Assembly: GCA_965215505.1 (NCBI GenBank)
Contig: OZ244065.1
Location: 4,701,835 to 4,765,834 of the forward strand
Origin: Capsulimonadaceae bacterium
GTDB lineage: Bacteria > Armatimonadota > Armatimonadia > Armatimonadales > Capsulimonadaceae
DNA length: 64,000 bases
Reading direction: 5' to 3'
Below, piece by piece: positions 4,011 through 20,208 of this stretch; the first letter of the stretch is position 1; every line of letters starts with the position of its first letter. The notes below the pieces were generated by a model. It had not been told where the DNA came from. It saw only the letters and a program-made list of their open reading frames with translations, and made no database searches. A program made the translations under genes and the position numbers.

Positions 4011-6476
4011 TCAGATGAAATTTGAACCGGGAGCGATACCAATTCCGCGCGTGAACGTATAGTCGCACTCGTTACCCAACTTGCGAATGCCAAAAATCTC
4101 ATTCCAAAAGGCGGGAGCGACGTCTTCTTCTTTGATCCGCAATTGTACAATGTGTTCAGCCATGCTGCGTAAATGTGCTTCTACAGCGACCTTTAGCTTC
4201 TTAAAGTCTTTGTAGTTGCCACGTTTACGTTTTGCCTCTGTCAATGACTGTGCCAGTATTTCTAACTGTTCAAAGTCTGTATCTGCTGGTCCTTGTGGGA
4301 TGTAATAGCGAAATTGCTTGCCAAAGTCTTGTTCATCAATGAGACGGAACCGACCCATGTTCTCAAACGCTGCTTCGTTAATACAGCGTATAAGATTTCC
4401 TTTGTCATAATCTTTGCCAACTTTTGGATGCTCACCGATAGAAAGGTTGTTATTGACCAGTTCAAAAAAGGCTTGCTGAATACCTAGCAAATCCCGCTCG
4501 CGAACGATTTCCGGCAGATTAGTACGGGAGAAATCTAAATACCAGGCTGGCTCACTTTTCTGATAAATCAATGCAGCGCGTGATTTTTTGTTCTCATTCT
4601 TTAATTCAAAGACAAACACGATGCCTTGTTTGCTATTGCCATCGTGATCCTGTAGCAATCCGTTACGATTACAACGCCCTGCGGCTTGGATAAGATTCGG
4701 TAAAGGACACAGGTCTCGAAAGACAACTGGAAAATCAATATCTACGCCCGCTTCGATCAGTTGTGTTGTAATCAGAACAATCCTTTCGCCCTTATCAAGT
4801 ACCTGTTTAGCTCTCGCTATTTTCCTGCGGCGGTCGTGTGGTGTGAAAAGTGTGCTCAACAGCATGATACACTCATCTTCTTCGGTAGTACTGAGAATAT
4901 CAAAGAGATTTTTGGTGTCGTCAATTGTGTTCAAGATAATAAGACATGACGATTTTTGTTCGCTAACCTTTTCTGCTAGTTTTTCAAGAGAAAACTCGGT
5001 ATCAAGCATGCGTTGAATTTTGTAACGGTCAAAAACTGGACTGCCATAGTACACAGATGCATTTACAAGTTCTTGGGGCTTGACATAAGAAGTGAAAAGC
5101 CTCTCAGGACATTCCTGGGGATCGCGTGTTGCTTTTGAAGCTATCTCCAGAGCTGGCATAGTAGCTGTAGAAATAATAGCGTAAGAGTTGAATTTGCGAC
5201 AAAAGGCATCAAGAAATGCCGTAAAAAAGACATACAAACGCGGGGGTAACGCTTGTATTTCATCAACGAGGAAAATAGTGTTGGAAAAATTGGGCAATCG
5301 CAACAAAGTTGCGTTACGGTTGCTCATAAACGTCTCGAATAGTTGCACGAATGTCGTAATGATGAAAGGGGCATCAAATGTGTCTTGGGCAAAACTCTCT
5401 TGCAACAGCGCATCGATCTTTGCTGGATCGTTATCCAGTTCTTCCTGCAACTTCTCCATGCGCTCATTGTGCGCCTTTGAGTCGATCCGTAGAACAACAT
5501 CTTCTTCAGGATTGTCAGTATTCAGAATATCCCGACAAACCCTTTCTACTTGTTCTGTGATCGAGAGAAAAGGAAGGCCATAAATAATGCCGAGATTGTT
5601 GTTCTTCTGAAGAATTTCATTGGCAAGTGCTAACAGCATCATTGTCTTGCCAGATCCCGTCGGCGAAGTCAATGAGAATACTCGCTGGTCTTTATCAAGC
5701 GCCGATTTGAGAGATGTGACAGCCTCTTCCCGAATTTGAGTACGCACTTTATTAAGTTCGCTATCCATCGTGAAGGATGCTAGGGTTTTTGTGAGTGCGG
5801 TGTCAACGCGGGCTGCGAAAGAGTCGGTGTAGAATGCTCTCCTGAACTCTTTGTTGTCGCCAGCATCCCGCTTGTCAGACTCAATGAGACAGGAGAAAGC
5901 GAATTGTGTTTCCAATACGAAATCAAGTGGGGCAGTCGCAATAACGCTTTCGCTGCACTTGCTAAAATCTTTTAACAGATTTATAGTGGGCTTTTCAAAA
6001 AGATCAAATGGCTTATGATTGGTTAGGCTTTGCAGTGATTGCGATGCTCGCAAAAAATCTGATGCCGGTAAATAGGGCTGCGTTTTAAGAAACTCTACCA
6101 TTCGGTCACGCTCATTGATACCGATGATACTTTCAGTGAAGTTAGTGAGGTTTCCATGATGGCGTGCCGTTAAAGCGATAATGCTGAAAATCTGAGAAGC
6201 AGTTAGCCCAAGCGGATTGTCCCTGTTCTTTGCAAGGAAGCAAAGGAAAGCATAGGCAGAGAGACAAGCATGATTTGAGTACGCACCCGCAGTTGGCGGC
6301 ATATTGCCAAGCTTCTCCTGAAAGAACGGGTTGAGCTTGCCTACATCGTGAAATATGGCGGCAACTTCTGCAATCCAAAGATTCGTGCGTAGCTTTGTGC
6401 CGTCTATGACCCCCTGAGTATGGATGTGAAGCAACTTGTGCGGGTGGGAACGAAAGGCTTCTAGATCAAACTCCAT
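4011..6476 (-). CDS. cas3: Cas3 fused HD nuclease and DEAD/DEAH helicase
   Basis: The product is 821 aa. It has an HD motif (AAIFHDVGKLNPFFQ), Walker A (SPTGSGKT), a DExx box (FLVDEIQA) and helicase C motifs. Visibly AT-rich codon usage. Confidence 0.93.
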   Translation of the reverse strand: MEFDLEAFRSHPHKLLHIHTQGVIDGTKLRTNLWIAEVAAIFHDVGKLNPFFQEKLGNMPPTAGAYSNHACLSAYAFLCFLAKNRDNPLGLTASQIFSIIALTARHHGNLTNFTESIIGINERDRMVEFLKTQPYLPASDFLRASQSLQSLTNHKPFDLFEKPTINLLKDFSKCSESVIATAPLDFVLETQFAFSCLIESDKRDAGDNKEFRRAFYTDSFAARVDTALTKTLASFTMDSELNKVRTQIREEAVTSLKSALDKDQRVFSLTSPTGSGKTMMLLALANEILQKNNNLGIIYGLPFLSITEQVERVCRDILNTDNPEEDVVLRIDSKAHNERMEKLQEELDNDPAKIDALLQESFAQDTFDAPFIITTFVQLFETFMSNRNATLLRLPNFSNTIFLVDEIQALPPRLYVFFTAFLDAFCRKFNSYAIISTATMPALEIASKATRDPQECPERLFTSYVKPQELVNASVYYGSPVFDRYKIQRMLDTEFSLEKLAEKVSEQKSSCLIILNTIDDTKNLFDILSTTEEDECIMLLSTLFTPHDRRRKIARAKQVLDKGERIVLITTQLIEAGVDIDFPVVFRDLCPLPNLIQAAGRCNRNGLLQDHDGNSKQGIVFVFELKNENKKSRAALIYQKSEPAWYLDFSRTNLPEIVRERDLLGIQQAFFELVNNNLSIGEHPKVGKDYDKGNLIRCINEAAFENMGRFRLIDEQDFGKQFRYYIPQGPADTDFEQLEILAQSLTEAKRKRGNYKDFKKLKVAVEAHLRSMAEHIVQLRIKEEDVAPAFWNEIFGIRKLGNECDYTFTRGIGIAPGSNFI

Positions 6477-7162
6477 GCACTTCCTCCTGAAAAACGGTAA
6501 TGTTCGCCGGTCACTGCTATTTCTTGATTTGCAGTTGGATAGATGACGTCAACATATCGTTCCGGCAAATTCCAGAAGTCGTTGTTCTGATAGGTCGGAA
6601 TGCGCTCAAATCCAACGCGGAAGTTGCTAAGGTCAACCCGCTCCCGGTCCAGCTTAAATCGCCGAGGCACAAAGCCTTGTGTGCTAAAGCTTCCTTCTGA
6701 ATGGCTGAACTCACCCTGTTCCAGTGGAATAATTTCCGCAGGGCAATTGTGAAGACCGAAAACCGGTGTGTAATACGACTCACTATTCTGTATGAGTTGA
6801 GTGAACTCCTGAAATAGTCCTTCTGACCGTTCATTCGCGAGCGCAAGTGCGACAGTAAAGTCTGGGTTCTTCAGAAACTCCATCTGCTTTGGAGCCTTCT
6901 CAAACAGATTTTCCGCACGACGCAGAGTAAATGCCCACGACTCTTTTCGCACAGTTCCGCTTACCTGGACTCCGTAAAGTAAATCCTCACTTAGTACTGG
7001 AAATAAGGAACGCATGGCCTCCCGCTCTTGACCTGTGACCGCTCCGATCAACCCTATAAAAGCGGTTTTCGTGATAAAGTCATGTGTCAGCGGATTGTTG
7101 TTAGTTTCCGGCTTTTTAAAGTGTGCCCACCTACCGCGTAGGCGCAACGTCAGCCCTTTCAT
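6461..7162 (-). CDS. cas5: Cas5 (type I-B Cascade subunit)
   Basis: The 233-aa product has a Cas5-type N-terminus (MKGLTLRLRGRWAHFKKPETNNNPLTHDFITKTAFIGLIGAVTG). It lies between cas7 and cas3 and overlaps cas3 by 16 nt. AT-rich. Confidence 0.85.
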   Translation of the reverse strand: MKGLTLRLRGRWAHFKKPETNNNPLTHDFITKTAFIGLIGAVTGQEREAMRSLFPVLSEDLLYGVQVSGTVRKESWAFTLRRAENLFEKAPKQMEFLKNPDFTVALALANERSEGLFQEFTQLIQNSESYYTPVFGLHNCPAEIIPLEQGEFSHSEGSFSTQGFVPRRFKLDRERVDLSNFRVGFERIPTYQNNDFWNLPERYVDVIYPTANQEIAVTGEHYRFSGGSAWSLI

Positions 7163-7164
7163 TT

Positions 7165-8097
7165 TTATCCCTCGGCTTCCAAGAACGTCATCGTGTTGAA
7201 TTTGGGCATCGCCACGAGTTGTTCAGAAAGGCTGGGAACTTCTGTATAGAAGTTGACTGCCTTCACAACAGGCGATTGAGTAAGTTCCAGAAACCGTGAA
7301 AAGTCCAGAGCGTAGTCGTCGAAAGAGCGCAATTGCTCATCTCTCTTGTCCGATTTGAGGGCGATAGAGCGATCTACGCCATAGAGCTTTTTTGTCGCGC
7401 CACTGTAAACGATTTGCAGCAGCAACAAAGAGTTTTGATTTGACTTGGTGCGAGTATTCGCGTTGTTGATGCTCTCCCACAGAGCCTGAAACATCAGTCG
7501 AATGTCGTCTTCAGTGAGGCCGGTATGACGGGCAGAAAAAGGATTGATCCACCCATGAATTTGATTTACGACGTATGGCACCACAGTTGTCGTGCCTATC
7601 GCACCACGTTCTTTGTCTGTGCTAGATGCAAAGACGGAAGTGTTTTGGTGCATGCGTAATTCGACTGCGTTAAGAGAGGGGTTTAGCAGGGCGAACTGGA
7701 CCGGCCCGGTGAGATTGACGGCATTTTTTTCTTGTGTAAGAATTCCTCCGAATAGACGTACATCAGTGAGGGATTTTAGGATTGCTAGAGTGTCCTTATC
7801 CTCCGCGATCTTTTTGAGCGCATTGAAGCGGGCAGCGGCCCCCGACTCTGCATCACCTTTTGCGTTCTTTTCGACACTGCTCCGATCATTGAGGACATAG
7901 ACAGAGTTGCGGTCCATGTCGGCAATGTAGTCACGGATGAAGCGCTTGATACGAACATCACTGACGAGGGCCTTTTTAGTTTCCTCATCGTAGCGCTGCT
8001 CACCCGTGAATGGGTCGCCGTTTGGGATCGAGTAGGTACTTTCGTACAAGAAGAGGATTTCTGACTTATCGACAGGCAGATTTTGCATATTGTTCAT
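7165..8097 (-). CDS. cas7: Cas7 (type I-B/I-C Csh2/DevR-like backbone subunit)
   Basis: The 310-aa product has a characteristic N-terminus (ILFLYESTYSIPNGDP...RYDEETKKALVSDVRIKRFIRDY). It sits between cas8b and cas5. AT-rich. Confidence 0.88.
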   Translation of the reverse strand: MNNMQNLPVDKSEILFLYESTYSIPNGDPFTGEQRYDEETKKALVSDVRIKRFIRDYIADMDRNSVYVLNDRSSVEKNAKGDAESGAAARFNALKKIAEDKDTLAILKSLTDVRLFGGILTQEKNAVNLTGPVQFALLNPSLNAVELRMHQNTSVFASSTDKERGAIGTTTVVPYVVNQIHGWINPFSARHTGLTEDDIRLMFQALWESINNANTRTKSNQNSLLLLQIVYSGATKKLYGVDRSIALKSDKRDEQLRSFDDYALDFSRFLELTQSPVVKAVNFYTEVPSLSEQLVAMPKFNTMTFLEAEG

Positions 8098-8119
8098 TGG
8101 TGTTTGCTCCCTCCCAGGA

Positions 8120-9937
8120 TTATTCTTCGTCTTGGCCTTCTGCGGCGGTCAGGTCTGGCGCTTTAGAACCGTCATCAGCTTTCTGATATGGTTGGAAATA
8201 GCTCTCAAAGAACCCGAAAGCGCAAAAGTCGCTGTCGTACTTTTCGACGCTCTCATCGAAGCTGAGAATTTTTTCTGCTAATTCACTTGAAGTGCGGAAT
8301 GTGAACTTAGTACGATCATGCATCACGAGTTTTTGGTTGATCTCGTTGTGCAATTTGACTACATCAGGCAATGTCGAGATGCGACGGGACAGCAGCCCAA
8401 CGTAGTTCTTCTCGAAAGATTTGATGGGGCTTTTAGGTCCAGCGAATTGGCGGCCCATCTTGCCAAGAAGTGAGCCAACTTGATAGCTTTGAGAACCCTG
8501 TATGTCCATGAGGCGGTCCCCTTCGTAATTTTGCAACAGTATCAGAAAGTAGAAATCGTATTTGAACAGGTTAAAACCAGTTCCACCGTTGCGAATATTG
8601 AACTGTGTTTTTTCGATAAGCGCAGGCAGCAGAACAGGATCGTCGTAATAGGTTTCGCTATAAATTTGCGGCAAGACTTTAAACAGATGGTTCTGGTACT
8701 TCTTTTTCGCCCGCGTCATGTCTCCTAGTATGTTTAGGAATGAACGAGTAATATCTAGCGGAGCAAGATCCTTCTTGAATAGAAGCTGTCTTTCTTGATT
8801 CAACTTGTTGCGGATATGACGTACTTTCTTACTGAGATCAGTGAGCCGACTTTTTTCCAGGCCGGAGATTTCGAGCAAATCTGAATCCGGCGTAGAAGGA
8901 CCACTTCCTGCCTTGCTGAAGATAAAGTCAAACTGAACGATGTTATCATCAACATCATCCATGACGGCTGCAAAGAGCTTATCTAGGTTTGTTTCATCAC
9001 CAGAAATCTCAGGTGAGGGAGCCGCAAGATTTTCCTCGCTTTGCTCCGCTCGGCTCAACGACTTCCGCTCGAAAAACGTCTCAATCTGCTTCGCTGTTAG
9101 GCGGCTGGTGCTGTCTTGTTCATTGCCACGGGGCAGGACGATGATCTTGACGTCCCGTTCGCGAATGACAGCTCTCTGCGAGTAATCGATAGCATAAAGC
9201 AGATTCAAAACATCGTCAAATGAGCGAAAGATGCGACTCTTATACTGGCTCTTGCTATCAAACCCAGGAGCATTATTCTTTCCCGAAGCAAGCGTTTTAT
9301 AAAGAGCCTTTTTGAGAACATAACCGTTCGCGATCTCTGAATACTCGACGAACTCATCAAGCAGTTTTTCATTGATGAGCTTCATCTCGCCTTCAAACTC
9401 ATACCAACTTTTGCCATCAAAATCAAAGTGCAAAAAGATGCTAGGCTTGTCGTGAAGAAGCGCCTCCAAAGCTTCAATGTTGGCCTTTAGCGAACTGCGA
9501 AACTTTTCAATATGAGAATCTGCAAACGCGGCGGCATCTTGTTGGCCGCGCACGAAAGAATTGACTTGGAAGCCCTTTGCCGCCACGGATGGATCACCAA
9601 GAACGAAGTTCGTTTCAGTGATGCTGATGTCGCCCGTTTTGTTATTCGTGACCGTTTGATAGCATATGTCGCCAAAGATATACTTCTTCATCGAGTCCGC
9701 ATCAGAGGTCTTATAGTTGAGATAAAACAGACGGTTCTTGATGAAATCCTCGTCTGTCAGAGGCACCCTGTTGTTGAGGTCGAACGTAAAATCAGGCCGT
9801 ACAGGAATGGAGTAGTAGCTGATTGGCTGTTTCTCAGTGGTTTGTGGTGCTTGCTTAACATACCGATGATGCTTGAGACCACCAGGGCCTTTTACATTGC
9901 GGAAAGTTTCGCCGATCTTCAAAAGCGTTTCTAACAT
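8120..9937 (-). CDS. cas8b: Cas8b-like large subunit of type I-B Cascade
   Basis: The product is 605 aa and is the first gene of the cas8-cas7-cas5-cas3 block. Size, position and the lysine/asparagine-rich composition fit Cas8b. The family call rests on context more than on motifs I can name. Confidence 0.75.
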   Translation of the reverse strand: MLETLLKIGETFRNVKGPGGLKHHRYVKQAPQTTEKQPISYYSIPVRPDFTFDLNNRVPLTDEDFIKNRLFYLNYKTSDADSMKKYIFGDICYQTVTNNKTGDISITETNFVLGDPSVAAKGFQVNSFVRGQQDAAAFADSHIEKFRSSLKANIEALEALLHDKPSIFLHFDFDGKSWYEFEGEMKLINEKLLDEFVEYSEIANGYVLKKALYKTLASGKNNAPGFDSKSQYKSRIFRSFDDVLNLLYAIDYSQRAVIRERDVKIIVLPRGNEQDSTSRLTAKQIETFFERKSLSRAEQSEENLAAPSPEISGDETNLDKLFAAVMDDVDDNIVQFDFIFSKAGSGPSTPDSDLLEISGLEKSRLTDLSKKVRHIRNKLNQERQLLFKKDLAPLDITRSFLNILGDMTRAKKKYQNHLFKVLPQIYSETYYDDPVLLPALIEKTQFNIRNGGTGFNLFKYDFYFLILLQNYEGDRLMDIQGSQSYQVGSLLGKMGRQFAGPKSPIKSFEKNYVGLLSRRISTLPDVVKLHNEINQKLVMHDRTKFTFRTSSELAEKILSFDESVEKYDSDFCAFGFFESYFQPYQKADDGSKAPDLTAAEGQDEE

Positions 9938-10011
9938 GGCATTTCCTGTTACCGCATTCTTGCGATGCGCTCGTCATAGAACGGAAGAAGCAGAAGTGCT
10001 CAGTGAAGATG

Positions 10012-10440
10012 AGAGATTGTGACCTGCGGCCCTAATCTCCGGCGAGGCACAAGTGCCAGGCGTTGCTATCTGTCCACAACACCATGTAGCCGAAGCAGGT
10101 CGTTTGGCGACCATTCGGGCCGCAGGAACATTTGGGAGAATTATAGCACAGGAAGCAGGGAAACAGCAAAGGGAGAGGGCGACCTGCGGCCCTATCTTCA
10201 GCGAGGCCCTGGGCCAGACGTTGTAACGCCGTGTGACCGAAGAAAGACGTGAAGCGACCGTTCGAGCCGCAGGGACATTTACAGGCGCAGTATACCCCAA
10301 AGAACAGGAGCGCGGGTGGGGCGAAGGGACGACCTGCGATCCTATCTCCCGCGCGAGGCGGGAGCAGGCCGCGAACGCGACTTTTCGGAGTGCAGGGACG
10401 TTTGTCCTCGCGGTATGCCCTAAAGAATCCGCATTGTTCC
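10012..10440. repeat. Three tandem, diverged units of 150-160 bp immediately upstream of cas8b
   Basis: The anchor GACCTGCGGCCCT occurs at 10021 and 10181, and as GACCTGCGATCCT at 10331. Each is complementary to a downstream partner: GGGCCGCAGG at 10117-10126, GCCGCAGG at 10266-10273, GCAGG at 10392-10396. On the - strand each unit carries a -10-like hexamer: TATAAT (10145-10140), TATACT (10294-10289), degenerate in unit 3. Confidence 0.85.
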
Positions 10441-10543
10441 GTTGTTCTCGATTCATCGGAGTTGCCCTTTCCCGCGCGCTTATCTGCCATTCTTTTGTGT
10501 TCCACAGGGGGTATAATTCACCTGACCCTGGAGGAACACCGCC

Positions 10544-10783
10544 ATGACGGTCTTGCTGTCTTTAACAACGGAACAGGAACAAAAACTGACGCAAGCGGCC
10601 CAGGCGCGGGGTCTGGATGCCGACCGTCTCTTACACGAGGTGCTGGATACGGCTCTCGCGCAATTAGAACCCGCGTCGGTGCCCACGCCCAAACGGATGC
10701 CGGACCTTCACTTCGGCCAAACCTGGGTTAGTGACGATTTTGATGCGCCTCTGCCCGATAGTTTCTGGCTAGGTGAAGAATGA
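10544..10783 (+). CDS. Type II antitoxin (VapB-like, DUF2281-like C-terminus)
   Basis: The product is 79 aa. Its stop overlaps the downstream PIN toxin start in an ATGA arrangement. The C-terminal DDFDAPLPDSFW motif is typical of this antitoxin class. Confidence 0.75.
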   Translation: MTVLLSLTTEQEQKLTQAAQARGLDADRLLHEVLDTALAQLEPASVPTPKRMPDLHFGQTWVSDDFDAPLPDSFWLGEE

Positions 10784-11166
10784 ACCTCCTCCTGGACACC
10801 CACACATTTCTTTGGTGGGACAACGGTTCCGTCAATCTCTCGCCCCGCGTGCTTGCGCTCTGCAACGACCCGACCGTGATTCTGTATCTGAGCCTGGTCA
10901 GTCTCTGGGAGCTTCAGATCAAGAGCGGCCTGGGCAAACTGTCTTTGCGCCTGCCGCTACGAGCGCTTGTGGCGGACCATCAGCAAAAGAATGGGATGCG
11001 ACTGCTGCCGATCACCCTCGACCATCTCCTCGCGCTGGACGCTCTGCCACACCATCATAAAGACCCGTTCGACCGTCTTCTGATCGCGCAGGCGCAGGTG
11101 GAAGGCATGTCCTTAGCCAGCATGGATCATGTTTTTGCCGGCTACCCTGTTTCCCTTATTTGGTGA
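10780..11166 (+). CDS. vapC: PIN-domain type II toxin (VapC family)
   Basis: The product is 128 aa. It has an N-terminal LLLDTHTFLWW acidic motif and C-terminal DPFDRLLIAQA, both typical of PIN toxins. Confidence 0.85.
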   Translation: MNLLLDTHTFLWWDNGSVNLSPRVLALCNDPTVILYLSLVSLWELQIKSGLGKLSLRLPLRALVADHQQKNGMRLLPITLDHLLALDALPHHHKDPFDRLLIAQAQVEGMSLASMDHVFAGYPVSLIW

Positions 11167-11918
11167 CCTTTGATGTCCACCATGCCGAATCCCGCCGCGT
11201 TCTTCTCGCCGAAGCCGGTTTCGTATCCCACTCGCATCAGGTCCACGGAACCGGAAACGGTGAACGGGCAGAAGGCACCGACGATTCGGATGTTCTTGAA
11301 TGTCGTCAGCTTGGTCCCGCCGCCCGTCCGGGCCAGGTAGGCGGGGCCGAAGGCCAGCGCGAAGCGGTCGTCGTCGGGCAGGTCCCCATAAACCAGGCGG
11401 TGCTTGCGGAGCAGGTTGCGGCGCACGGCCTCGGAGAAAGCCTCCCCGTCACTGGGCCGCAGGTAGCGCGTCCCTCCGTCCGGCAGCGGCAGGGCGGCGA
11501 CAACCGGCGACAGGCAGGTGAAGGCGGTCGTCTCGGACAGGATGGGGGCGGCCAGCGTCTCGATCTGCGTGATGGGGAGTGTCGCCGGGCCGACCCGGAG
11601 CGCCCCCGCCGCCAGCAGGCCCGTGGCGAGGTTCGTCAGGAACGGCTCCACCGGCGAGGCGATCAGCCATTCCAGCGGGCCGGGCGCGAAGCGCAGCATG
11701 TCGCCGTCCACGGTGCGCCGCGTGCCCCGCAGCCAGGAGAACGTGAACAGCTTGAAGCGCCGCCCGTCCTCATCCGCGTAACCGTCGTCGTGCAGGAAGC
11801 GGGCGTAGTCGGCGTCCGAGGCCGCCAGGAGTCCGTAGACGGCAGCAGTCAACCACTCTTGGTAGTTGATCGGCAGCCGGGTCCCCGTTGAGTTGTCTAG
11901 ACAAACGCGCAGGCGCAT
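11142..11918 (-). CDS. cas6: Cas6 CRISPR RNA endoribonuclease
   Basis: The product is 258 aa. It has a RAMP-type N-terminus (MRLRVCL...LPINYQEWL) and a C-terminal glycine-rich loop (GFGEKNAAGFGMV). It is GC-rich and its 3' end overlaps vapC convergently by 25 nt. Confidence 0.85.
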   Translation of the reverse strand: MRLRVCLDNSTGTRLPINYQEWLTAAVYGLLAASDADYARFLHDDGYADEDGRRFKLFTFSWLRGTRRTVDGDMLRFAPGPLEWLIASPVEPFLTNLATGLLAAGALRVGPATLPITQIETLAAPILSETTAFTCLSPVVAALPLPDGGTRYLRPSDGEAFSEAVRRNLLRKHRLVYGDLPDDDRFALAFGPAYLARTGGGTKLTTFKNIRIVGAFCPFTVSGSVDLMRVGYETGFGEKNAAGFGMVDIKGHQIRETG

Positions 11919-12002: not shown

Positions 12003-13157
12003 TCACGACGCGGCGTAAATCTCGCGGAGTTTTTTCGCCTCCGCCGCCAGCTCCCGGCGCAGGGCAGGCGGCTCCAGGACCTCGACTTCGGCCCCGTAAC
12101 CCAGCAGCCAGCGCTTCACCTCCGCCGTCCCTGCCAGGGCCAGCGTCATCTCCAGGCTGCCGTCCGCCGCTTCCGCGCACTGCTGGCTGGGGTGGTAGCG
12201 CCGCTCGCGTATCCAGCGGGCCTGGTAGGGCGAGAAGCGCACCCGCACCGTCACCAGCGCTTCCCCGTGATGCAGCGCGAAGCCGTGACTCAGGTAGGCT
12301 TCCACGTCGAAATCGGCGTCACGCGCGAAGGCATCTCCGGGCGGGAGCAGCGCCCACTCGCGGACGCGCCCCAGGAAGAAGTCGCGGAAGCCCTGCCGCC
12401 ACTCGCACCAGGCGATCAGGTACGGCTCGCCGCGCCAGTGGTGCAGGTGGTACGGCTGCACGACCCGCTCGTTCACGTCGTCGCGGTGGGCGCTGTAGTA
12501 GAGGAGTTGGAGACGCCGCCGCTCCTCCAGCCCCCGGCGGCAGTCGTCCAGCAGAGCCGGGGACGCGCCCACGGCGCTCTGGGCCTGGATGGCACCGCCC
12601 ATGCTCTCCGCCGCCGTCTCTGCTAAAGATGACAGGAAGGGCTGGAGGCGCTGGGCCAAGGCGCTGACCGGCCCGGCGTCCGGCGCGGCCAGGTACTCGC
12701 GGGCGGCCAGGAGGGACCGGCGCAGGGTGGCGGCCTCCCGCTCGGTGAGGGCGAGGAACGGGAGCAGGTAGGTCGGGTCGGTGTAGGCCCACCCGCCGCG
12801 CCGCCGGTCGTAGACGAGGGGTGCGCCGAGGTTGTCCGTCAGGTGGCGGTGGTCGGCGAAGGCCGTGCGGCGGGAGACGCCGAACTGTTGGCAGACGGCC
12901 TCGGCGTTGGGGTAGTGCCGGCTGCGGATCTGGCTGTCGATCCAGTAAAGGCGTTCGATCTGAGACAAGGGACACTCGCTCCATGCCGTGAAAAGCCGTA
13001 AAGGCGGTTTCTTGCTCTCTGTTCCATAGAGGCCCGGCTTTTTCCTGTCTGTGTCAAGGAACGGAGAACGTAAGTGCCATTCAATCGTCCGTTGCCTCGG
13101 TCTTTGCTTCCCCTGCCCATTGCCGCGAGGGGACGTCCGTCGCCCGGACCCAGCCAC
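12003..13157 (-). CDS. HTH plus WYL-domain transcriptional regulator (probable CRISPR-Cas regulator)
   Basis: It has an N-terminal HTH (SQIERLYWIDSQIRSRHYPNAEAVCQQFGVSRRTAFADHRHL) and a WYL-like core (VVQPYHLHHWRGEPYLIAWC). It lies directly upstream of cas6 on the same strand. The ORF-maximal GTG start at 13157 is probably too far upstream; the true start is likely near 12968-13070. Confidence 0.8.
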   Translation of the reverse strand: MAGSGRRTSPRGNGQGKQRPRQRTIEWHLRSPFLDTDRKKPGLYGTESKKPPLRLFTAWSECPLSQIERLYWIDSQIRSRHYPNAEAVCQQFGVSRRTAFADHRHLTDNLGAPLVYDRRRGGWAYTDPTYLLPFLALTEREAATLRRSLLAAREYLAAPDAGPVSALAQRLQPFLSSLAETAAESMGGAIQAQSAVGASPALLDDCRRGLEERRRLQLLYYSAHRDDVNERVVQPYHLHHWRGEPYLIAWCEWRQGFRDFFLGRVREWALLPPGDAFARDADFDVEAYLSHGFALHHGEALVTVRVRFSPYQARWIRERRYHPSQQCAEAADGSLEMTLALAGTAEVKRWLLGYGAEVEVLEPPALRRELAAEAKKLREIYAAS

Positions 13158-13718
13158 GACCTCTGATCACCAGCGGTTTTTCCACAGGGTTATCCATAGT
13201 TGGCTTTCCAGCCTGCCGATTTTTGCGGAGGGCATTTACTGCTTTGATGCCTTACCCGGACGTGTGGCGTGGGTTATAATCTTGCGGGGAGAGTGGTTCC
13301 GCCCAGACGGAACCGTTCTTGGACAGCAAGGAAGATCAGGAAAGGATCTGGTACGGCGATCCGTTGCTCCCTGGACCCTGTCCGTTGTGTCACAACGTCC
13401 GCTGGTGCGGTCGGACGTGGGTTGACGCGGCGCGATCCTTCTGAGTCCCTCGTAACCCGTGCAAAGGTCTGACCATTATAAGCCGGGAACAACTGGAAGG
13501 GGTTTGTTCGCGCGAGCAAGCGATGGGCTAAGTCCCAGCCAGGAATATGCGGACAGGACTAGTCAGAGGCCCACGGTCAAACAGAACTGGTTGCATATCG
13601 TGAGGCTGAGAGGTGTGGGTGAGGCTTATAACTCTTGGCAAAGCCCACGCGCGGCCTCCCGGTCAGTATCCGCCACATTCCGTCCTAACAGAACGCCGGA
13701 CTGCGGCACCAAAAGGGG

Positions 13719-15296
13719 TTAATGACGCTTACGCAGTTCTTCAACCACATCCGCTATGTTGAAGGGCAGATTCAGGATTTTGCAAGCCCTTTGGTATCTC
13801 TTCCTGAAATTGTCGGCTTTGCTCTCTATCTTTCCTGACTCTTGTAGGAACTTGTAAGCGCCTTGGTAAGAGGGCCAGCTTTTTTGCTTGATGTAAATGT
13901 GTAAGACGTCCCTCACCAGCCGGAGGCTGTCTTGGTTGGAGATTTTGTACCTGGTAGCTCCATGCGCTTTCCTCATAAGCGATGCTTGTTCCCTAAGATA
14001 GATCTCCCTGATGGTATCTGCCGTGACCCAGGAGTCAGCCTCAATCGTGATGCTGTCATGCGAAGCCTTCCCGTTCATCAGGCACTCAGCGGCCACACTG
14101 GCTGCATCCGAAGCGTCCATATTCACCACAATGCTTTTGGAAGTGCGGACACTCACCGGTCTATAATCCGCCTTGTCGGTCAGGACGAACATAGCTTGCT
14201 CCCGGCGTCCACCTGGGATCGCGTTCATGACGATCCGCGAGATGAGAAGGTCATAAAGCTCCTCCACCACTGAGCTCGTAAAGAAGCGGGTAAACCTGCC
14301 CGGCGTGTTTTCATTTTCACTCCCTTCGAGATCTGCTTCCCAGAAAAAAGGGTCACGGAGCAGTTTTACGGGTTTATGGTCCGACACCAGTGTCTTCTCA
14401 ATGATGCAACTTCTGCTTCCTGTAGCCCCCGTGCTGCCCGAGGTTACTTCAATGCTGACCGTATACTTGTACCAACGATGTACCTTCCCCAAAGAACCAT
14501 AATGAACAACGGTTGAAGGATAAGTAACTGTCTGACCCTTCAGCCGCTTCCTCTGTTCAGGCGTAACCACTTCTACGGCTTGATTTAGTACCTTCGCCTT
14601 ATGATCCGTGACAGAGGCACCTAACCCCTCGATGTCTGTGAAAGAAAGATACCGGAGAGCGGGGGAGGAGAGAAAAGCCCGCGCCTGGGCTGTGGACAAA
14701 AGGCCTGAAGGCAGGTATTTCTCTCGAAACACTTGCACCTGCGGTAAGAACCCGCAAAGCACACCCCGATGCATTGAAATTGCTTCTATGCCTTCCCGCT
14801 CTTGGGGGCTGAACACTTCTAGACCAACAGGGATCTTCTCTTGCTGAAGAGGCTCCTTAGAAAGCTCAACACTCTCAGCCTGTTGACGGGAACTTTGTTG
14901 TGGCAGTGACCGAGGAGCCTTAGAACACAAGTCTCTTGCTATTTTCCTTTCGAGGTCGTTTTTTGCAACCCCTTGAAGAGCTGATTCAAAACTCTCCCAT
15001 TGCCTGGCTTCTTCCCTTTTCTCCCTCGTTAGTTGTCCCTTCACTCGTTCAACTATTTCCGCTTTTTCGCGTTCATCTAGGCCATCGTGGACCCCTCCAA
15101 TATCGTAATCTGCCGATAATCGTACAAGAAAATACAAAGTCGCTGTCGTAAACTCGACCAAATTTAATCTTTCCCTGAGCCAGTCAAGTGAAGAAATCAG
15201 TTGCTCCTCATCCTCTTCCATTGCCCTGTCCATATCTTCAAAGTCAGACATATAAGCCTCTCTAAATGTCTTGTGGATAATAGTACATGTCGTCAA
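13719..15296 (-). CDS. Hypothetical protein with no recognisable family (525 aa from the ORF-maximal start; 510 aa from the SD-preceded ATG at 15251)
   Basis: This is a long uninterrupted ORF in the most AT-rich part of the element. GAGAGG lies 6 nt upstream of the ATG at 15251. The N-terminus is acidic and the product has no transmembrane segments. Confidence 0.7.
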   Translation of the reverse strand: MTTCTIIHKTFREAYMSDFEDMDRAMEEDEEQLISSLDWLRERLNLVEFTTATLYFLVRLSADYDIGGVHDGLDEREKAEIVERVKGQLTREKREEARQWESFESALQGVAKNDLERKIARDLCSKAPRSLPQQSSRQQAESVELSKEPLQQEKIPVGLEVFSPQEREGIEAISMHRGVLCGFLPQVQVFREKYLPSGLLSTAQARAFLSSPALRYLSFTDIEGLGASVTDHKAKVLNQAVEVVTPEQRKRLKGQTVTYPSTVVHYGSLGKVHRWYKYTVSIEVTSGSTGATGSRSCIIEKTLVSDHKPVKLLRDPFFWEADLEGSENENTPGRFTRFFTSSVVEELYDLLISRIVMNAIPGGRREQAMFVLTDKADYRPVSVRTSKSIVVNMDASDAASVAAECLMNGKASHDSITIEADSWVTADTIREIYLREQASLMRKAHGATRYKISNQDSLRLVRDVLHIYIKQKSWPSYQGAYKFLQESGKIESKADNFRKRYQRACKILNLPFNIADVVEELRKRH

Positions 15297-15380
15297 CGGG
15301 ACGCGGAGCTAAGAGGGGCCACAATCAGCCTTTGAGTCCAATCTGCCACCGGAACGAACAACCTACAGAGGAGGTAACGC

Positions 15381-15512
15381 ATGAAGCCTACGACACCGCA
15401 CAGCCAACCCACGCCTAACCCGCATTGGGTCATGTTCTGGCAAAAAGTTCGAGCCGCAGCGGATGAGTTACGCCGCCTCGAAGCCGAGCAGGCTCAGGGC
15501 GACCAGCTTTAG
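15381..15512 (+). CDS. Small hypothetical protein (43 aa)
   Basis: Translated by hand as MKPTTPHSQPTPNPHWVMFWQKVRAAADELRRLEAEQAQGDQL. A strong SD (GAGGAGG) lies 7 nt upstream. It is too short for the ORF track. Confidence 0.45.
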   Translation: MKPTTPHSQPTPNPHWVMFWQKVRAAADELRRLEAEQAQGDQL

Positions 15513-15535
15513 ATCGAGATCACAAGGAGATCACA

Positions 15536-15706
15536 ATGAACAGTGTTCCATTCAATCGCCCCACAGGCAGCCCCGGCCCGCGCCGCCCCGTTCTGCCGCC
15601 CCGTCTCTTTCTCGACTTGCCCTTACCTGGCCTGGGGCAAACGAGTATTACCGGGGCGCAAACGCCACCGGCGGGCGTCACGGAGTGGGAGAGGGGAAAA
15701 GCCTGA
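15536..15706 (+). CDS. Small hypothetical protein (56 aa) translationally coupled to rep
   Basis: Translated by hand as MNSVPFNRPTGSPGPRRPVLPPRLFLDLPLPGLGQTSITGAQTPPAGVTEWERGKA. An AAGGAG SD lies upstream. Its stop overlaps the rep ATG (TGATG). Confidence 0.45.
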   Translation: MNSVPFNRPTGSPGPRRPVLPPRLFLDLPLPGLGQTSITGAQTPPAGVTEWERGKA

Positions 15707-16629
15707 TGTTCCCAGACTACCTCACGTTCAGCGTGCCCCTGCCCGTGGCAGAGTGGCTACTAGGCAGCCTGACCAGCCCCTACATGAGCAAGCGCTCCCC
15801 GTCAAGCACTTATGAAGAGGTGAGACGTTGCGGCGGCGTCTCAATCTCCGTGCCCGCCAACCCGAACGCGGAGGCGCGTGTCGAAGTGACAGGTGACGGC
15901 TGCCGCGAACTGGAAGCGGCGGGCACGGTAGCCCATTGGCCGACGTTTCTGAGGAGCCTGCTGAATGACGGAGCAAGGTTCACGCGCTTTGACTTCGCCA
16001 TTGACGATCAAATCGGCCTCCTCAATCTCGACCACATCATCACCGCCTGTGAAGAGGGGCGCGTCGTGTCAGCCTACAAGAGCGTGGACTTCCGCCCCAA
16101 GCTGGACGGGACCACCGGCCAGATCATCGGGCGGGGTGTCACGTTCGGCACACGCGGATCGGAGAGCTACGTTCGCATCTATGACAAGGAGTTACAGCAG
16201 GCCGTCCCTGGGCACTGGATCAGAGTGGAGCTAGAGACGCGCAAAGAAAGGGCACAAGCACTGGCAGAGGCGATCGCCAAGCGCGGGGCACAAGTCGTGC
16301 CCCCCATTCTACTCAGCTACCTCAATTTCAAGGTGCAAGGGCGAGACAAGAGGCGGTGCCGCTGGAAAACGGAAAGCTGGTGGACAACCTTCCTGGGCAC
16401 GACGCGACGCCGCCGGCTAGAAGTCGCGCCCCGGAACGTGAGCCTGGAGAAGACTTACCGTTGGCTGATCCGCAGTGTCGCACCGGCGTTCGCGCGAGTA
16501 TATGACAGTGGGATAGGTGAGCAGCTTATCACGCAGATGCTGGCGCACGGGCGGTCGAGGCTGAACCGTATCCCCGCCACGGCTACCAGGAGTGAGGCAG
16601 AGCCAGCGGCGAAGGCGGAGCATCCGTGA
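15706..16629 (+). CDS. Replication initiation factor (Rep_trans family, rolling-circle type)
   Basis: It starts MFPDYLTFSVP, matching the family's typical xDWLxFT start. It also has the YVRIYDKELQ motif typical of Rep_trans proteins. The ORF-track start at 15463 adds an implausible Arg/Pro-rich extension. Confidence 0.8.
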   Translation: MFPDYLTFSVPLPVAEWLLGSLTSPYMSKRSPSSTYEEVRRCGGVSISVPANPNAEARVEVTGDGCRELEAAGTVAHWPTFLRSLLNDGARFTRFDFAIDDQIGLLNLDHIITACEEGRVVSAYKSVDFRPKLDGTTGQIIGRGVTFGTRGSESYVRIYDKELQQAVPGHWIRVELETRKERAQALAEAIAKRGAQVVPPILLSYLNFKVQGRDKRRCRWKTESWWTTFLGTTRRRRLEVAPRNVSLEKTYRWLIRSVAPAFARVYDSGIGEQLITQMLAHGRSRLNRIPATATRSEAEPAAKAEHP

Positions 16630-16734
16630 AGGCATGACAGACCAGCGCGGTCAATCGGAGCCGCCTCGCGGCCCCTTGACTTCAATTCCAGCCGCCGCCA
16701 CAACCTTGGGGAGCGCACTGGCAGCAGGACGGTT

Positions 16735-17019
16735 TTAGCTGCCTGTGCGTTTCCCGGCCACGGCGAGTGCAGCGGAGGATGTCTCCTGCAACGACGCCAC
16801 ATCGCGCTTTCGCCCGCGCCCCGGCCCGCGCGGCTTGATGGTACGCTTGATGCCGTTGTAACTGCCCGGCTGGTAAGCATCGAGGTCAGCCGCGCGCAGT
16901 GCAATCCGATCCAGGACGCGCACGGAAGGCAGCAGGCCCCGCTCGATTGCCTTATAAATGGTGGGCAGCGAGACGCCCTTAATCTCGGCGGCCTTCTTCG
17001 GCGTAAGGTACTCGTCCAT
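16735..17019 (-). CDS. Excisionase-family / MerR-like HTH DNA-binding protein (candidate recombination directionality factor)
   Basis: The sequence MDEYLTPKKAAEIKGVSLPTIYKAIERGLLP is a classic excisionase-type HTH. AGGAG lies upstream of the ATG at 17019. The C-terminal tail is basic. Confidence 0.75.
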   Translation of the reverse strand: MDEYLTPKKAAEIKGVSLPTIYKAIERGLLPSVRVLDRIALRAADLDAYQPGSYNGIKRTIKPRGPGRGRKRDVASLQETSSAALAVAGKRTGS

Positions 17020-17148
17020 GTGTCTCCTGATGCTCGTTTGCCGTGGCAGTTCCTGCTTGTTGTCTAACAGTGAATACATTATGACACAAAGAACGCTGGA
17101 AGTCCAAACTGTTCTCCTTTCAATATTTAGGAGGAATATCTAGGCCAC

Positions 17149-17183
17149 TTGATATTTAATGTACAAAACAGTATACTTATAAT
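17149..17183 (+). promoter_or_regulatory. Sigma70-like promoter upstream of the serine recombinase
   Basis: TTGATA (17149-17154) is followed by a 17-nt spacer and TATACT (17172-17177), with an adjacent TATAAT (17178-17183). It sits in an AT-rich patch about 415 nt upstream of the recombinase start. Confidence 0.5.
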
Positions 17184-17598
17184 GCGGCCCTGACCGCCTG
17201 AATGAGCGTCGTCACACTAGCCGCTAGGCTGTTCGCCCTGCTTCACGGAGACAGCGCCGCCCACACCGAGGCGCGGGCGCGGCCCAGCATCAAAAGCCGT
17301 GCGGTACTTTGGGAAGACGGCTACGAGGCTCGCAGCATGAGGCTGGGGTTGTTGCCGGCAACTTCCCCTAGACAACTTGTACCAGTTCCTGCGGCTTCGA
17401 TAAGCTGGCCCCGTTCGGCTCATACTGATCCTGCTTGCGCCTTCCCACGTTTCCGTTTGGACGGAGGCGTGGGGAGTCTCGTGGCAATTGGGGAGGCTTA
17501 CCGCTCGGCCCTTTGCAGTCCGCCTGAGAGGTTTTTTCATCAAGTAGTCGGGTCCAGGTAGGGGCGCGGCTGCCATAGCAATGCATAGGAGAAGCATC

Positions 17599-19332
17599 AT
17601 GACAACCCCAGACTTCAACAAGTCAAAAGGCGCGGTCCTCTACACCCGCGTCAGCACCGGCGACCAGGACAAAAACGGGACAAGCCCGGAGACGCAGCTT
17701 TCCGCCTGTCGGGCTAGGGCGCTCGCTGAGGGCCTGCCCGTCGTCGCACAGTATCATGACGGCGGCATATCAGGCGGCTTCCTGCTGACCCGCGCGGGGA
17801 TGCAGGCGGCCCTTGCCGACATCCAGGCCGGGCGGGCTGACACGCTCATCTGCGCCAACATCAGCCGCTACAGCCGTGACACCGAACATCAGCAGGCGAT
17901 CAAGAAGGCCGTCAAAGCGGCGGGCGGCCATCTCGTATTCTGCGACATGGCGTTTGATGACACGCCGGAGGGGGATCTCGCATTCGGCGTGATGGGGACT
18001 TTCGCCGAGTATGAGCGCAAAGTGATTCGCCAGAGGACCATGCGGGGCAAGAGGAAGCGCGCGGAGGAGGGGCAGCAACCGCAGCGCAGCCGGTCCCCCT
18101 ACGGCTATCACATCGTCACCAACGCCGAAGTGGCCGCCGGGCTGCACCCTGCCCACCTGCGCGGGCGCTACCTCGTTCTGGAACCGATGGCCGGTATGGT
18201 GCGGCGCATCTTCGCCGATTATCACTCCGGGGCGTTCAGCCTGTCCGCGCTGTGCCTCGCGCTGAACCGTGAGGGGGTTGCGACGCCCGGCCACGGGAGA
18301 GCCTGGCAGGAGGCCACACTGCGGGTCATCCTGATGAACCCCGTTTATAAGGGCGAACCCGTCAGCGGGCGGCAGAAGTGCGTCACCGACGAGAGCCGCA
18401 TCGGGCAACGGCACAAGCTGACGGGCCGCCCCATCCGCACTCCGTACACGCGCACCCTGGCCCCTCCTGATGACCTCCTGACGCTCTCCGCCCCACCTCT
18501 GGTTGACGCCGAGGTTTGGGAGGCCGTGCAGTCGCGCCTGACCCGCATGAGCGGCGAGGGTGGCGGCAGCCCGCGTCAGGTGAGGATGCTGTCGGGCCAC
18601 ACGGTCTGCCCCTACTGCGGCGGCAAAGCCGGCATCAAGTACCAGAAGGCGAACGGGAAGAGATACCGCTACTTCACCTGCAACCAGCACAAACAGGCGC
18701 GGCGCGGACACGAAGGTTCTCCGTGCCGGGGCGAGCTGTATCCGGTGGAGACAGTAGAACAGGCCGTGTTGCAGTCCCTTCGGGATGCTTGGCAGAAGCC
18801 CGCCGCAGTCCAGGCGGCCCTGCACGTCTACACCGAGCCGATGCCGCTCAACAAGCGGACGGGCGAAGACGCCGAAACCCGGAAGGCCTTGGACGACCTG
18901 AAGGTGGAAGAGCAGGCGACCGCACAGGCCCAGGTCGCAGCCATCCGCGCGGGTGCATCACCAGACGCTTTCGCGCCCCTCTTCGCTGACATCGCCGCCC
19001 GGCGAAAGGCGTTACTGGCGCAACAGCAACCGGCGGCCATGAGCGGTGCGGCGGACGAAACGGGGAAGCCGGGCCGGGCAGGGCGGAAGAGCACCAATGT
19101 TGATCTGAAGATGGCCTGCCTGGCGATGGAGGAGGCGTGGCGCGTTCTGACCAGTGAAGGGGTCGAGGGGCACGTCAAACGCGATCTGCTGCTGACACTG
19201 GTAGAGAAGGTGATCTGCCACAAAGACGGGGCTGAAGTCGTGTTTCTCCCCGGCGTGTTCGGGGACGCCGGGGAGGGCGACGGGGTATCAACCCTTTATA
19301 CCACCTGCATCGGCATCAGGACGCACAGGTAG
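17599..19332 (+). CDS. Large serine recombinase (resolvase domain, recombinase domain and zinc-ribbon)
   Basis: It has the catalytic-serine motif AVLYTRVSTGDQ and a Cys cluster (CPYCGG...FTCNQH). The product is 577 aa from the SD-preceded ATG at 17599. The ORF-track start is 17581. Confidence 0.9.
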   Translation: MTTPDFNKSKGAVLYTRVSTGDQDKNGTSPETQLSACRARALAEGLPVVAQYHDGGISGGFLLTRAGMQAALADIQAGRADTLICANISRYSRDTEHQQAIKKAVKAAGGHLVFCDMAFDDTPEGDLAFGVMGTFAEYERKVIRQRTMRGKRKRAEEGQQPQRSRSPYGYHIVTNAEVAAGLHPAHLRGRYLVLEPMAGMVRRIFADYHSGAFSLSALCLALNREGVATPGHGRAWQEATLRVILMNPVYKGEPVSGRQKCVTDESRIGQRHKLTGRPIRTPYTRTLAPPDDLLTLSAPPLVDAEVWEAVQSRLTRMSGEGGGSPRQVRMLSGHTVCPYCGGKAGIKYQKANGKRYRYFTCNQHKQARRGHEGSPCRGELYPVETVEQAVLQSLRDAWQKPAAVQAALHVYTEPMPLNKRTGEDAETRKALDDLKVEEQATAQAQVAAIRAGASPDAFAPLFADIAARRKALLAQQQPAAMSGAADETGKPGRAGRKSTNVDLKMACLAMEEAWRVLTSEGVEGHVKRDLLLTLVEKVICHKDGAEVVFLPGVFGDAGEGDGVSTLYTTCIGIRTHR

Positions 19333-20072: not shown

Positions 20073-20208
20073 CCGGCTGAGGGCGTTGAGCAGGAGACGA
20101 GAACGCGGCTCCCGGCCCGCCGCATCTGCAATGAACGCGACCTACCTGTGCCGCAGAGCCATGACCACATAAAACCGAACACACCGCATCCGCGCATCGT
20201 CAGGCCTG

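Follow-up and report, generated by a model that had tools for sequence, protein, structure and literature searches.

A tandem array of probable DUF3800-IX-class small RNA genes upstream of cas8b in a Capsulimonadaceae bacterium

Described systems and the locus under study

Eleven unrelated RNA motifs adjoining genes for DUF3800 proteins are presented in the survey by Weinberg et al. 2017 (PMC5737381), and one of them, DUF3800-IX, corresponds to the family RF02968. The present analysis concerns three tandem units upstream of the gene cas8b, located within 64,000 nucleotides of a Capsulimonadaceae bacterium (contig OZ244065.1; this whole stretch is called the window). The units are probably paralogous small RNA (sRNA) genes of the DUF3800-IX class, encoded on the cas strand and orphaned with their structure kept, of which units 2 and 1 are probably read into cas8b. 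Each unit is a complete gene copy with the following elements: (i) a -10 box; (ii) a spacer, usually of 7 nt; (iii) a conserved 5' end; (iv) a multi-helix fold; (v) a C/U-rich tail. In relatives, which belong to Armatimonadota as far as the genome-derived loci show, the RNA regularly occupies the cas6-effector junction of type I CRISPR-Cas loci, and in the window its genes have been amplified to three copies with the structure maintained.

Unit 3 has in common with RF02968 (Weinberg et al. 2017, PMC5737381) the three-helix plan, composed of an outer stem, CGAA, a GUCGC hairpin, a second hairpin and a UAGG that closes the junction; a further common feature is the DUF3800 gene found beside the RNA in relatives. 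In contrast to RF02968, units 1 and 2 are longer and carry two extra hairpins in the stem P2, missed by the Rfam model. Further differences are the tandem organization in 2-3 copies with promoter elements, the fixed place in type I CRISPR-Cas loci, and the missing DUF3800 neighbour of the RNA, both in the window and in several of the relatives. No description of the long variant, of promoter-bearing tandem arrays, of the placement between cas6 and the effector genes or of an RNA persisting without the protein has been found in the searchable literature, a coverage that does not extend to the supplement of the 2017 survey. The RNA family itself is already known; the long form, the tandem arrays and the CRISPR context would be new.

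CreTA/CreR, too, are small RNA genes within a cas operon; in type I-B their classical place is between cas6 and cas8b, and these RNAs are proposed to guard or regulate the cas genes (PMC8501985, PMC9458426; bioRxiv 10.1101/2023.03.10.532045). Cascade processes and uses CreA and CreR, both of which are degenerate CRISPR repeats, and the partner in CreTA is an RNA toxin. The units, in contrast, have no similarity to the repeat or its handle, and their recurrent partner is a protein gene (DUF3800).

DUF3800 proteins have in addition been noted as accessories of Cas12a2/a3 loci, Cas13 loci and type VII retrons. The class 2 cases (TPR-DUF3800 of Cas12a2/a3; Csx32 of Cas13 CASK) resemble the present loci in that an RNase H-fold DUF3800 protein recurs in CRISPR-Cas loci; they are often TPR fusions, no conserved adjacent RNA is described for them in the available text, and the Cas12a3 paper also mentions type III (PMC10910872, PMC12669027, PMC13594972, bioRxiv 10.64898/2026.08.25.746378). 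Unlike these cases, the context here is of type I (cas6 with cas8b or cas3), and the RNA is the more constant element.

Two further groups of repeated RNAs are relevant. Tandem RNA repeats are a hallmark of type III antitoxins of the ToxI type, in which repeats of ~36 nt have one common promoter, lie upstream of the toxin on the same strand and are separated from it by a terminator. The units and their relatives share with ToxI/ToxN the combination of tandem structured RNA repeats with a nuclease-like protein gene, and diverse RNAs for one protein family. Unlike ToxI, the units are 80-120 nt long, carry for the most part a separate -10 box each and are oriented convergently to the protein gene, and the window has no toxin gene. 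Downstream on the same strand lies cas8b instead of a toxin-like gene, there is no terminator, and DUF3800 is convergent in the relatives. PrrF1/PrrF2, OmrA/OmrB and LhrC1-4 regulate in trans by base pairing and have defined terminators and known regulons. They resemble the units as head-to-tail duplicated sRNA genes with own promoters, diverged sequence and a kept fold, whereas in the units no terminator, seed region or target is evident.

RNA family, fold and conservation of the units

The three diverged units are arranged head to tail at window positions 10015-10404, in the 606-nt gap between cas8b (8120-9937, minus strand) and a vapB-like gene (from 10544, plus strand):

10015..10134, minus strand: unit 1, next to cas8b; long form in which 11 nt extend the P2a hairpin, GUGGACAGAUAGCA
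10175..10281, minus strand: unit 2, in the middle; long form, with P1, P1a and P2 and two added hairpins, P2a and P2b
10325..10404, minus strand: unit 3, farthest from cas8b and closest to vapB; short three-helix form with P1, P1a and P2

The mean column identity in a three-way alignment is 68%. The 5' anchors in the window are GACCTGCGGCCCT at 10021 and 10181 and GACCTGCGATCCT at 10331, and their complementary partners are GGGCCGCAGG at 10117, GCCGCAGG at 10266 and GCAGG at 10392. A repeat search returned families of direct repeats in three copies, spaced 160/150 and 147/123 nt apart, and a long-range inverted repeat with arms at 10023-10036 and 10113-10126 that are 93% complementary. A triplicated tandem unit upstream of cas8b had been described from the letters of the window without database searches (hereafter the sequence-only reading); the anchors, partners and hexamers all lie where that reading placed them, and the long-range stem drawn for each unit is borne out as a 10-bp P1 in all three. 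No further copy was found by covariance models within the 64-kb window outside 10015-10404. Coding sequence was rejected as an interpretation of the units, because the overlapping open reading frames (ORFs; 9974-10456 and 10032-10505 on the minus strand, 10249-10731 on the plus strand) have no Pfam match and the unit length differences are not multiples of three.

A whole-window Rfam scan at curated thresholds gave a single match, unit 3, recognised by RF02968 with 38.6 bits against a gathering score of 36.8; the full model (1-67) is aligned to 10328-10397 on the minus strand. The short three-helix form of unit 3 is the canonical DUF3800-IX form, and the sequence-only reading, which did not recognise a known RNA family in the motif, was wrong on this point. 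Units 1 and 2 have no Rfam match even at E <= 10, and are linked to DUF3800-IX only via their homology to unit 3 and to short forms elsewhere. Since RF02968 recognises the short forms of five other loci at 39.8-56.8 bits, the whole set is tied to DUF3800-IX.

The minus-strand folds reveal a common architecture: a 10-bp closing stem P1, CGAA, a hairpin P1a starting with GUCGC, a stem P2, and AGAUAGG closing the junction. P2 is a simple stem in unit 3 and encloses the two extra hairpins P2a and P2b in units 1 and 2. The conserved 5' end of the units is NAAAYGUUCCUGCG, the 3' tail is C/U-rich, and the junction nucleotides CGAA, GUCGC and AGAUAGG are near-invariant. The minimum free energy fold of unit 1 has -56 kcal/mol (z = -4.5), and the motif folds independently of the leader sequence downstream; neither a switch-like alternative nor any other pairing that involves the cas8b ribosome-binding site was seen.

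Relatives have been identified with a degenerate DNA pattern made from the conserved pieces and run on genome, metagenome and viral contigs. Among 20 pattern matches in genome contigs, 6 are true relatives by sequence and model score, namely the Armatimonadota metagenome-assembled genomes (MAGs) of loci L002, L003, L006, L012 and L015 and the Anaerolineales MAG of locus L004; the 20 matches in metagenome contigs include 11 true relatives. The rest (~14 of 20 and 9 of 20, respectively) are chance matches in coding DNA and were dropped by eye and with covariance models. The relatives come mostly from metagenomic contigs. There were no pattern matches in viral contigs and no matches in plasmid, phage and viral collections, on which grounds a mobile-element origin of the units was rejected.

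Short and long forms are both present in other loci, and RNAalifold recovered the same helices separately in 7 short and 11 long forms. Covariance models were built for the short form (R1) and the long form (R2); with a shortened calibration, their E-values are approximate. Unit 3 scores 91.1 bits with R1, and with R2 unit 2 scores 111.4 bits (E = 1.5e-22) and unit 1 scores 100.5 bits (E = 4e-20); the three units are found by the models from relatives at E = 4e-23 to 4e-20 and, with the curated Rfam match of unit 3 as independent evidence, exceed a chance resemblance.

Covariation, which the sequence-only reading could not establish by eye, is seen in 24 homologous copies aligned to R2. Compensatory double changes occur at 16 of the 31 pairs, and 95.3% of the pair cells are standard, against 33-47% when the partners are slid by 1-3 columns; none of 500 shuffles reached any observed pairing measure. 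The covariation is carried by the free positions in P1 and by all of P2, P2a and P2b, so that the DUF3800-IX architecture has covariation support and is extended in the long forms by the helices P2a and P2b. G-U wobbles account for ~71 of 686 pair cells (hand count from the pairing table). These would be A-C mismatches on the opposite strand, which places the functional RNA on the cas strand. A plus-strand RNA was rejected on the G-U wobbles, the weaker plus-strand folds and the promoter orientation.

The copies can also be followed between genomes. Unit 2 has orthologues at L037:313-419 (88%) and L040:2850-2957 (85%), both of them middle units, and unit 1 has an orthologue at L040:2690-2809 (88%), the last unit of that locus; for unit 3 the counterpart is the first unit of L003 (L003:6480-6559), at 87% identity. 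The positional orthologues of units 1 and 2 indicate that at least this pair predates the divergence of genomes in which Cas6 is ~79% identical. All 31 consensus pairs are intact in unit 1 and in unit 2, and 20 of 23 alignable pairs are intact in unit 3. Between units 1 and 2, all changes at paired sites (8/8) keep the pairing, and 16 of 45 unpaired sites differ. Intact pairs together with pair-preserving substitutions argue against neutral decay of units 1 and 2.

Promoter elements and genomic setting

The promoter-like elements of the units, and the spacer leading to cas8b, are the following:

10148-10140, minus strand: extended -10 box of unit 1, TGCTATAAT, with TATAAT (6/6) and TGn, 5 nt before the model start
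10169-10164, minus strand: weak -35-like TTGCTG of unit 1, with an 18-nt spacer to TATAAT at 10145-10140
10294-10289, minus strand: -10 box of unit 2, TATACT (5/6), exactly 7 nt before the model start
10417-10412, minus strand: decayed -10-like box of unit 3, CATACC (3/6), at the conserved 7-nt distance
9938..10014, minus strand: spacer from unit 1 to the cas8b ATG, 77 nt, pyrimidine-rich, with AGGAAA 6 nt before the ATG

A match to TATAAT of at least 5/6 lies upstream of 27 of 35 non-redundant units, a level reached by 3% of random 20-mers from the same loci. Twenty of the 27 boxes are placed exactly 7 nt before the conserved 5' end and 15 have the TGn extension, so that a promoter element at a fixed distance is present, as in an independent sRNA gene. 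The unit that comes first after vapB has a weak box in L041 and L042 and none in L043. The promoter claim for the -10 boxes is based on this cross-locus conservation and not on a strict sigma-70 scan. An intrinsic terminator, the other feature of an independent sRNA gene, was not found in a scan of 9700-11300 (0 sites), and the C/U-rich 3' tails have no U run in most loci. The only promoter-like elements on the cas strand in the 606-nt gap are those of the units, and the distance from the RNA to the first effector gene is 19-49 nt in L047, L042, L041, L040 and L003.

With regard to the sequence-only reading, its -10-like hexamer at the start of each unit holds as a good box for units 1 and 2 and is decayed (3/6) in unit 3, and the TTGCTG, 18-nt spacer and TATAAT before the cas8b-proximal unit are as described there. 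Two of its proposed roles fit the data: three tandem small RNAs, given the fold and fixed-distance -10 box conserved in relatives, and stacked promoters each with a structured leader, given the same elements and nothing terminator-like between unit 1 and cas8b. As a separate observation, a GGGGTATAAT box at 10508-10517 on the plus strand, 27 nt before the vapB ATG, resembles the RNA promoters.

The genes around the units are arranged as follows:

8120..9937, minus strand: cas8b, first gene of the interference module (PADLOC Cas8b1, E = 3.3e-104)
4011-9937, minus strand: interference module cas8b-cas7-cas5-cas3, with Pfam Cas7, Cas5 and Cas3 downstream of cas8b
10544-10783, plus strand: vapB-like gene, divergent from the RNA units
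10780-11166, plus strand: vapC (Pfam PIN, E = 1.1e-10), its 3' end overlapping the cas6 3' end by 25 nt
11142..11918, minus strand: cas6 (Pfam Cas6_C, Cas6_I-A), conserved upstream neighbour of the RNA across loci
12003..13157, minus strand: WYL-WCX regulator gene upstream of cas6 (Pfam WYL, WCX; PADLOC CRISPR-associated WYL, E = 4e-37)

Analysis of the related loci with Pfam and tblastn revealed a recurring order: WYL, cas6, the RNA on the same strand, often a convergent DUF3800 gene, and then the effector genes. The effector module is cas8b-cas7-cas5-cas3 in the window, L002 and L024, and begins with cas3 in L006, L033, L036, L023, L028 and L040; while the cas8b-first or cas3-first module varies downstream of the RNA, the WYL-cas6-RNA part stays homologous, as compared over the window and loci L002, L006, L024, L036 and L040-L047. 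In the window, the interference module has a GC content of 42-50%, compared with 63-72% in the adaptation genes, cas6 and WYL, and the sequence to the right of the module has 58-72%, the jump being located at the RNA units. The RNA thus marks an effector-module exchange junction. Of the recombination scar envisaged by the sequence-only reading, the position is correct, as the units sit exactly at the effector-module and GC junction, but the units themselves are not a scar.

To remove ascertainment bias, loci have also been sampled by Cas6 homology only and then scanned with R1 and R2. Of the ten distinct loci in this sample, nine have the RNA in the gap between cas6 and the effector module, in one to three copies. 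Tandem arrays occur in L003 (2 copies), L012 (2), L037 (3), L040 (3), L043 (3) and L044 (2, one inverted). In the window, L003, L041, L042 and L043, an oppositely oriented vapBC pair is inserted between cas6 and the RNA, with VapC 74-95% identical. In 30 other loci the copies are confined to the gap between cas6 and the effector genes, a count that covers these loci and the 64-kb window.

Two loci depart from this setting. The highest-scoring canonical copies, L004 4781-4859 (56.8 bits) and L034 1569-1647 (49.4 bits), are near-identical RNAs, and in neither locus was a cas6, or any cas gene adjoining the RNA, detected; L004, the Anaerolineales MAG, has a convergent DUF3800 gene, and L034, a metagenome contig, has a HutZ-like gene there instead. 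Top-scoring copies in loci with no detected cas6 suggest that the CRISPR association may be specific to the Armatimonadota lineage. In L044, an insertion sequence element (DDE_Tnp_1) is inserted at 6778-7632, between cas6 and the RNA. The inverted second RNA copy of that locus, at 9123-9204, has a perfect TATAAT box and is located ~100 nt upstream of the cas8b-homologous region, which begins at 9299 by tblastn; the called gene starts at 9725.

A DUF3800 (PF12686) gene adjoins the RNA in 13 loci (L002, L004, L006, L012, L024, L028, L029, L036, L043-L046 and L053). The convergent gene is found in 5 of 10 Cas6-sampled and 8 of 14 pattern-derived loci, and encodes a stand-alone protein of ~220 amino acids. 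In all 13 loci RNA and gene are arranged tail to tail, with an overlap of 0-25 nt; 3' overlap is occasional (L012, L029), and in L012 the final DUF3800 codons are encoded opposite the RNA 3' end. The order in L043 (4596-6645) is RNA, DUF3800 C-terminal fragment, RNA, full DUF3800, vapCB and RNA, which is a duplicated cassette caught losing one protein copy. In the window no DUF3800 gene adjoins the units, and none was detected in the whole 64 kb by tblastn with four DUF3800 proteins (best E = 0.4).

Other features of the window lie farther from the units. The CRISPR array at 32-1684 consists of at least 25 identical 30-nt repeats and runs to the window edge. Read on the cas strand, the repeat has the usual handle of type I-B, ATTGAAAC, at its end. 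This indicates that the true orientation of the array is the minus strand and that it is probably co-transcribed with the cas genes, following cas2 (1889-2152, minus strand). A lower-GC island at 13000-19332 adjoins the CRISPR-Cas locus and is probably an integrated mobile element, with the following content:

13719-15296, minus strand: ORF of 525 amino acids with no Pfam match
15463-16629: Rep_trans rolling-circle initiator
16735-17079, minus strand: HTH_17 protein
17581-19332: large serine recombinase

Within 19296-20402 on the minus strand, the dnaN (DNA polymerase III beta) ORF has only 258 amino acids; its N-terminal domain PF00712 leaves a sub-threshold trace of 26.3 bits, with no single stretch passing, and a separate ORF of 86 amino acids lies just upstream, at 20142-20402. 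This could reflect a frameshift, a sequencing error or a disruption beside the recombinase-bearing element.

Competing explanations and biological meaning

As orphaned DUF3800-IX-class genes, the units would derive from a cassette of two components, an RNA and the RNase H-like DUF3800 protein that would bind it as its inhibitor, substrate or guide, and this cassette would have lost the protein in the window lineage. The promoters of units 2 and 1 probably also drive cas8b-cas7-cas5-cas3: vapBC, on the opposite strand, separates cas8b from cas6, and no terminator was found, so that transcription from these units probably reaches the interference genes. Unit 1 would then act as a structured leader of ~195 nt and the likely promoter of the interference operon, and unit 3, with its decayed -10 box, may be weakly expressed.

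Several observations weigh against this explanation. Start sites, 3' ends and read-through of the units are predicted from sequence, and the proposed RNA-protein partnership is suggested by gene adjacency. The strict sigma-70 scan of 9700-11300 gave no promoter and the -35 elements are weak; the negative outcome follows from TTGCTG, which agrees with TTGACA in just 3 of 6 letters. Since CTGC, CGAA, GTCGC, TAGG and GCAG were fixed in the search pattern, the invariance of these positions is partly built into the pattern-derived set; in the Cas6-anchored set they vary slightly. The RNA is lacking in one Cas6-sampled locus (L050-L052), in which cas6 abuts the next gene. In the closest Cas6 relatives there is a single copy, weakened in L042 and truncated in L041, which implies that the RNA is dispensable in some lineages. 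In loci with an intervening DUF3800 gene the RNA cannot serve as leader of the effector genes, and a leader role would be only secondary.

A tentative alternative is that the units are orphan RNA antitoxins or inhibitors, DUF3800 being a nuclease toxin or an effector of abortive infection. The RNA would restrain it through direct binding, like the antitoxins of type III systems, or as a 3'-overlapping antisense RNA, as in txpA/RatA. After loss of the toxin the copies would persist and increase in number as anti-addiction elements, or would neutralise DUF3800 genes elsewhere in the genome or on invaders. RNA and DUF3800 most recall RNA antitoxin and nuclease toxin pairs through the tail-to-tail layout, the 3' overlap (in L012 within DUF3800 codons), the L043 duplication and the eleven unrelated motifs. 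The convergent order with 0-25 nt overlap in 13 loci, the L043 cassette with one DUF3800 pseudogene fragment and the RNA retained, and the tandem repetition typical of ToxI-type antitoxins all favour it, as do the strong, near-consensus, extended RNA promoters. The eleven unrelated motifs beside DUF3800 (Weinberg et al. 2017) would correspond to the fast partner turnover of RNA antitoxins. However, no toxicity or defence role of DUF3800 is reported in the accessible parts of the DUF3800 literature searched, and PADLOC assigns no defence family to the DUF3800 proteins beyond one marginal match (PDC-M04A, E = 4.6e-4, L006 protein). The units have their own promoters on the strand opposite to the protein gene, unlike type III systems. 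Complementarity of the RNA (with its tail) to DUF3800 translation-initiation regions does not exceed that of shuffles (RNAduplex z from -0.2 to 1.4, by a weak method that allows large loops), and the window has no DUF3800 gene. An antitoxin is nevertheless compatible with the orphaned sRNA genes preferred here, as their ancestral function.

It is rather unlikely that the RNA is primarily a cis-acting regulatory leader, with a fold sensing a ligand, protein or temperature and with tandem copies as stacked control of the effector operon. Such a leader would suit the constant direction of the RNA toward the effector genes, the 19-77 nt to the effector start codon in loci without DUF3800, the lack of a terminator, and the highly conserved junction nucleotides, which resemble a binding pocket. 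Against it, a convergent DUF3800 gene intervenes in about half of the loci and makes cis control impossible there, by which a purely cis-regulatory leader is not the ancestral role. Also against it are L004 and L034, with no cas gene detected beside the RNA, the inverted copy of L044, and the independent folding of the motif, with no alternative pairing to the cas8b ribosome-binding site.

Lower still is the probability that the units are non-functional relics that stayed behind when an RNA/DUF3800 cassette was lost, arose as duplicates through slippage or recombination at the module-exchange junction and are decaying neutrally. The absence of DUF3800 from the window, the decayed -10 box of unit 3, the truncated L041 and weakened L042 copies and the position of the units against the GC break of the exchanged interference module could be read in this way. 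Yet in units 1 and 2 none of the 31 pairs is broken and the -10 boxes are good, with pairing preserved at 8 of 8 changed pairs, and orthologous tandem units persist across genomes with Cas6 only ~79% identical.

Two further proposals have very little probability. For a regulator of the CreA/CreR (CreTA) type, a degenerate mini-CRISPR guiding Cascade to repress a toxin or the cas promoter, speaks the position between cas6 and cas8b of type I-B, the classical CreTA site (PMC8501985, PMC9458426); this proposal is effectively refuted at the sequence level. Both strands of 9900-10560 were scanned with the complete repeat, its 8-nt handle and its final 14 nt; the best match to the 30-nt repeat was 15/30, equal to background on either strand, and neither the ATTGAAAC handle (<=1 mismatch) nor the final 14 nt (<=4 mismatches) had a match. 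The conserved fold, moreover, is unrelated to the repeat. DNA-level elements, either repeated WYL operator sites or a dispersed repeat of the repetitive extragenic palindrome (REP) or miniature inverted-repeat transposable element (MITE) kind, are just as improbable: tandem repeats with terminal inverted repeats do lie in a regulatory intergenic region beside a WYL gene, but compensatory changes and G-U wobbles show selection on one RNA strand, and there were no matches in the plasmid, phage or viral collections. The RNA is also present in L043, L045 and L047, with no WYL called immediately upstream of cas6, which leaves the operator idea of the sequence-only reading without support; the genome-wide scatter of a REP element, which that reading had named as evidence against itself, was not seen in the sequence covered, with only three adjacent copies in 64 kb and none outside the cas6-effector gap of the 8-13 kb loci.

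The analysed units thus remain best described as probable orphaned DUF3800-IX-class sRNA genes, and they bear on a neglected group of RNAs. For the eleven DUF3800-associated RNA motifs no functional hypothesis has been put forward since 2017, and DUF3800 recurs as an unexplained CRISPR accessory. The locus and its relatives provide a testable setting, with a conserved RNA, defined promoter boxes and one fixed position in type I cas operons, and with natural variants that have or lack the protein partner, carry one to three copies and differ in the effector module. Rfam gains a structural variant, the long form, missed by the current model. More speculatively, the DUF3800-IX RNA may be a repeat-independent functional RNA component, a structured sRNA retained at the cas6-effector junction, that guards or tunes the interference operon of a type I CRISPR-Cas lineage, with or without DUF3800, and that would here have been exapted as a structured multi-promoter leader of cas8b. 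One form of such guarding could be a back-up through addiction or abortive infection, comparable to CreTA but composed of a nuclease protein and an RNA of unrelated kind. If the RNA does regulate or guard the cas operon, it would represent a second, repeat-independent class of cas-embedded RNA beside CreTA/CreR.

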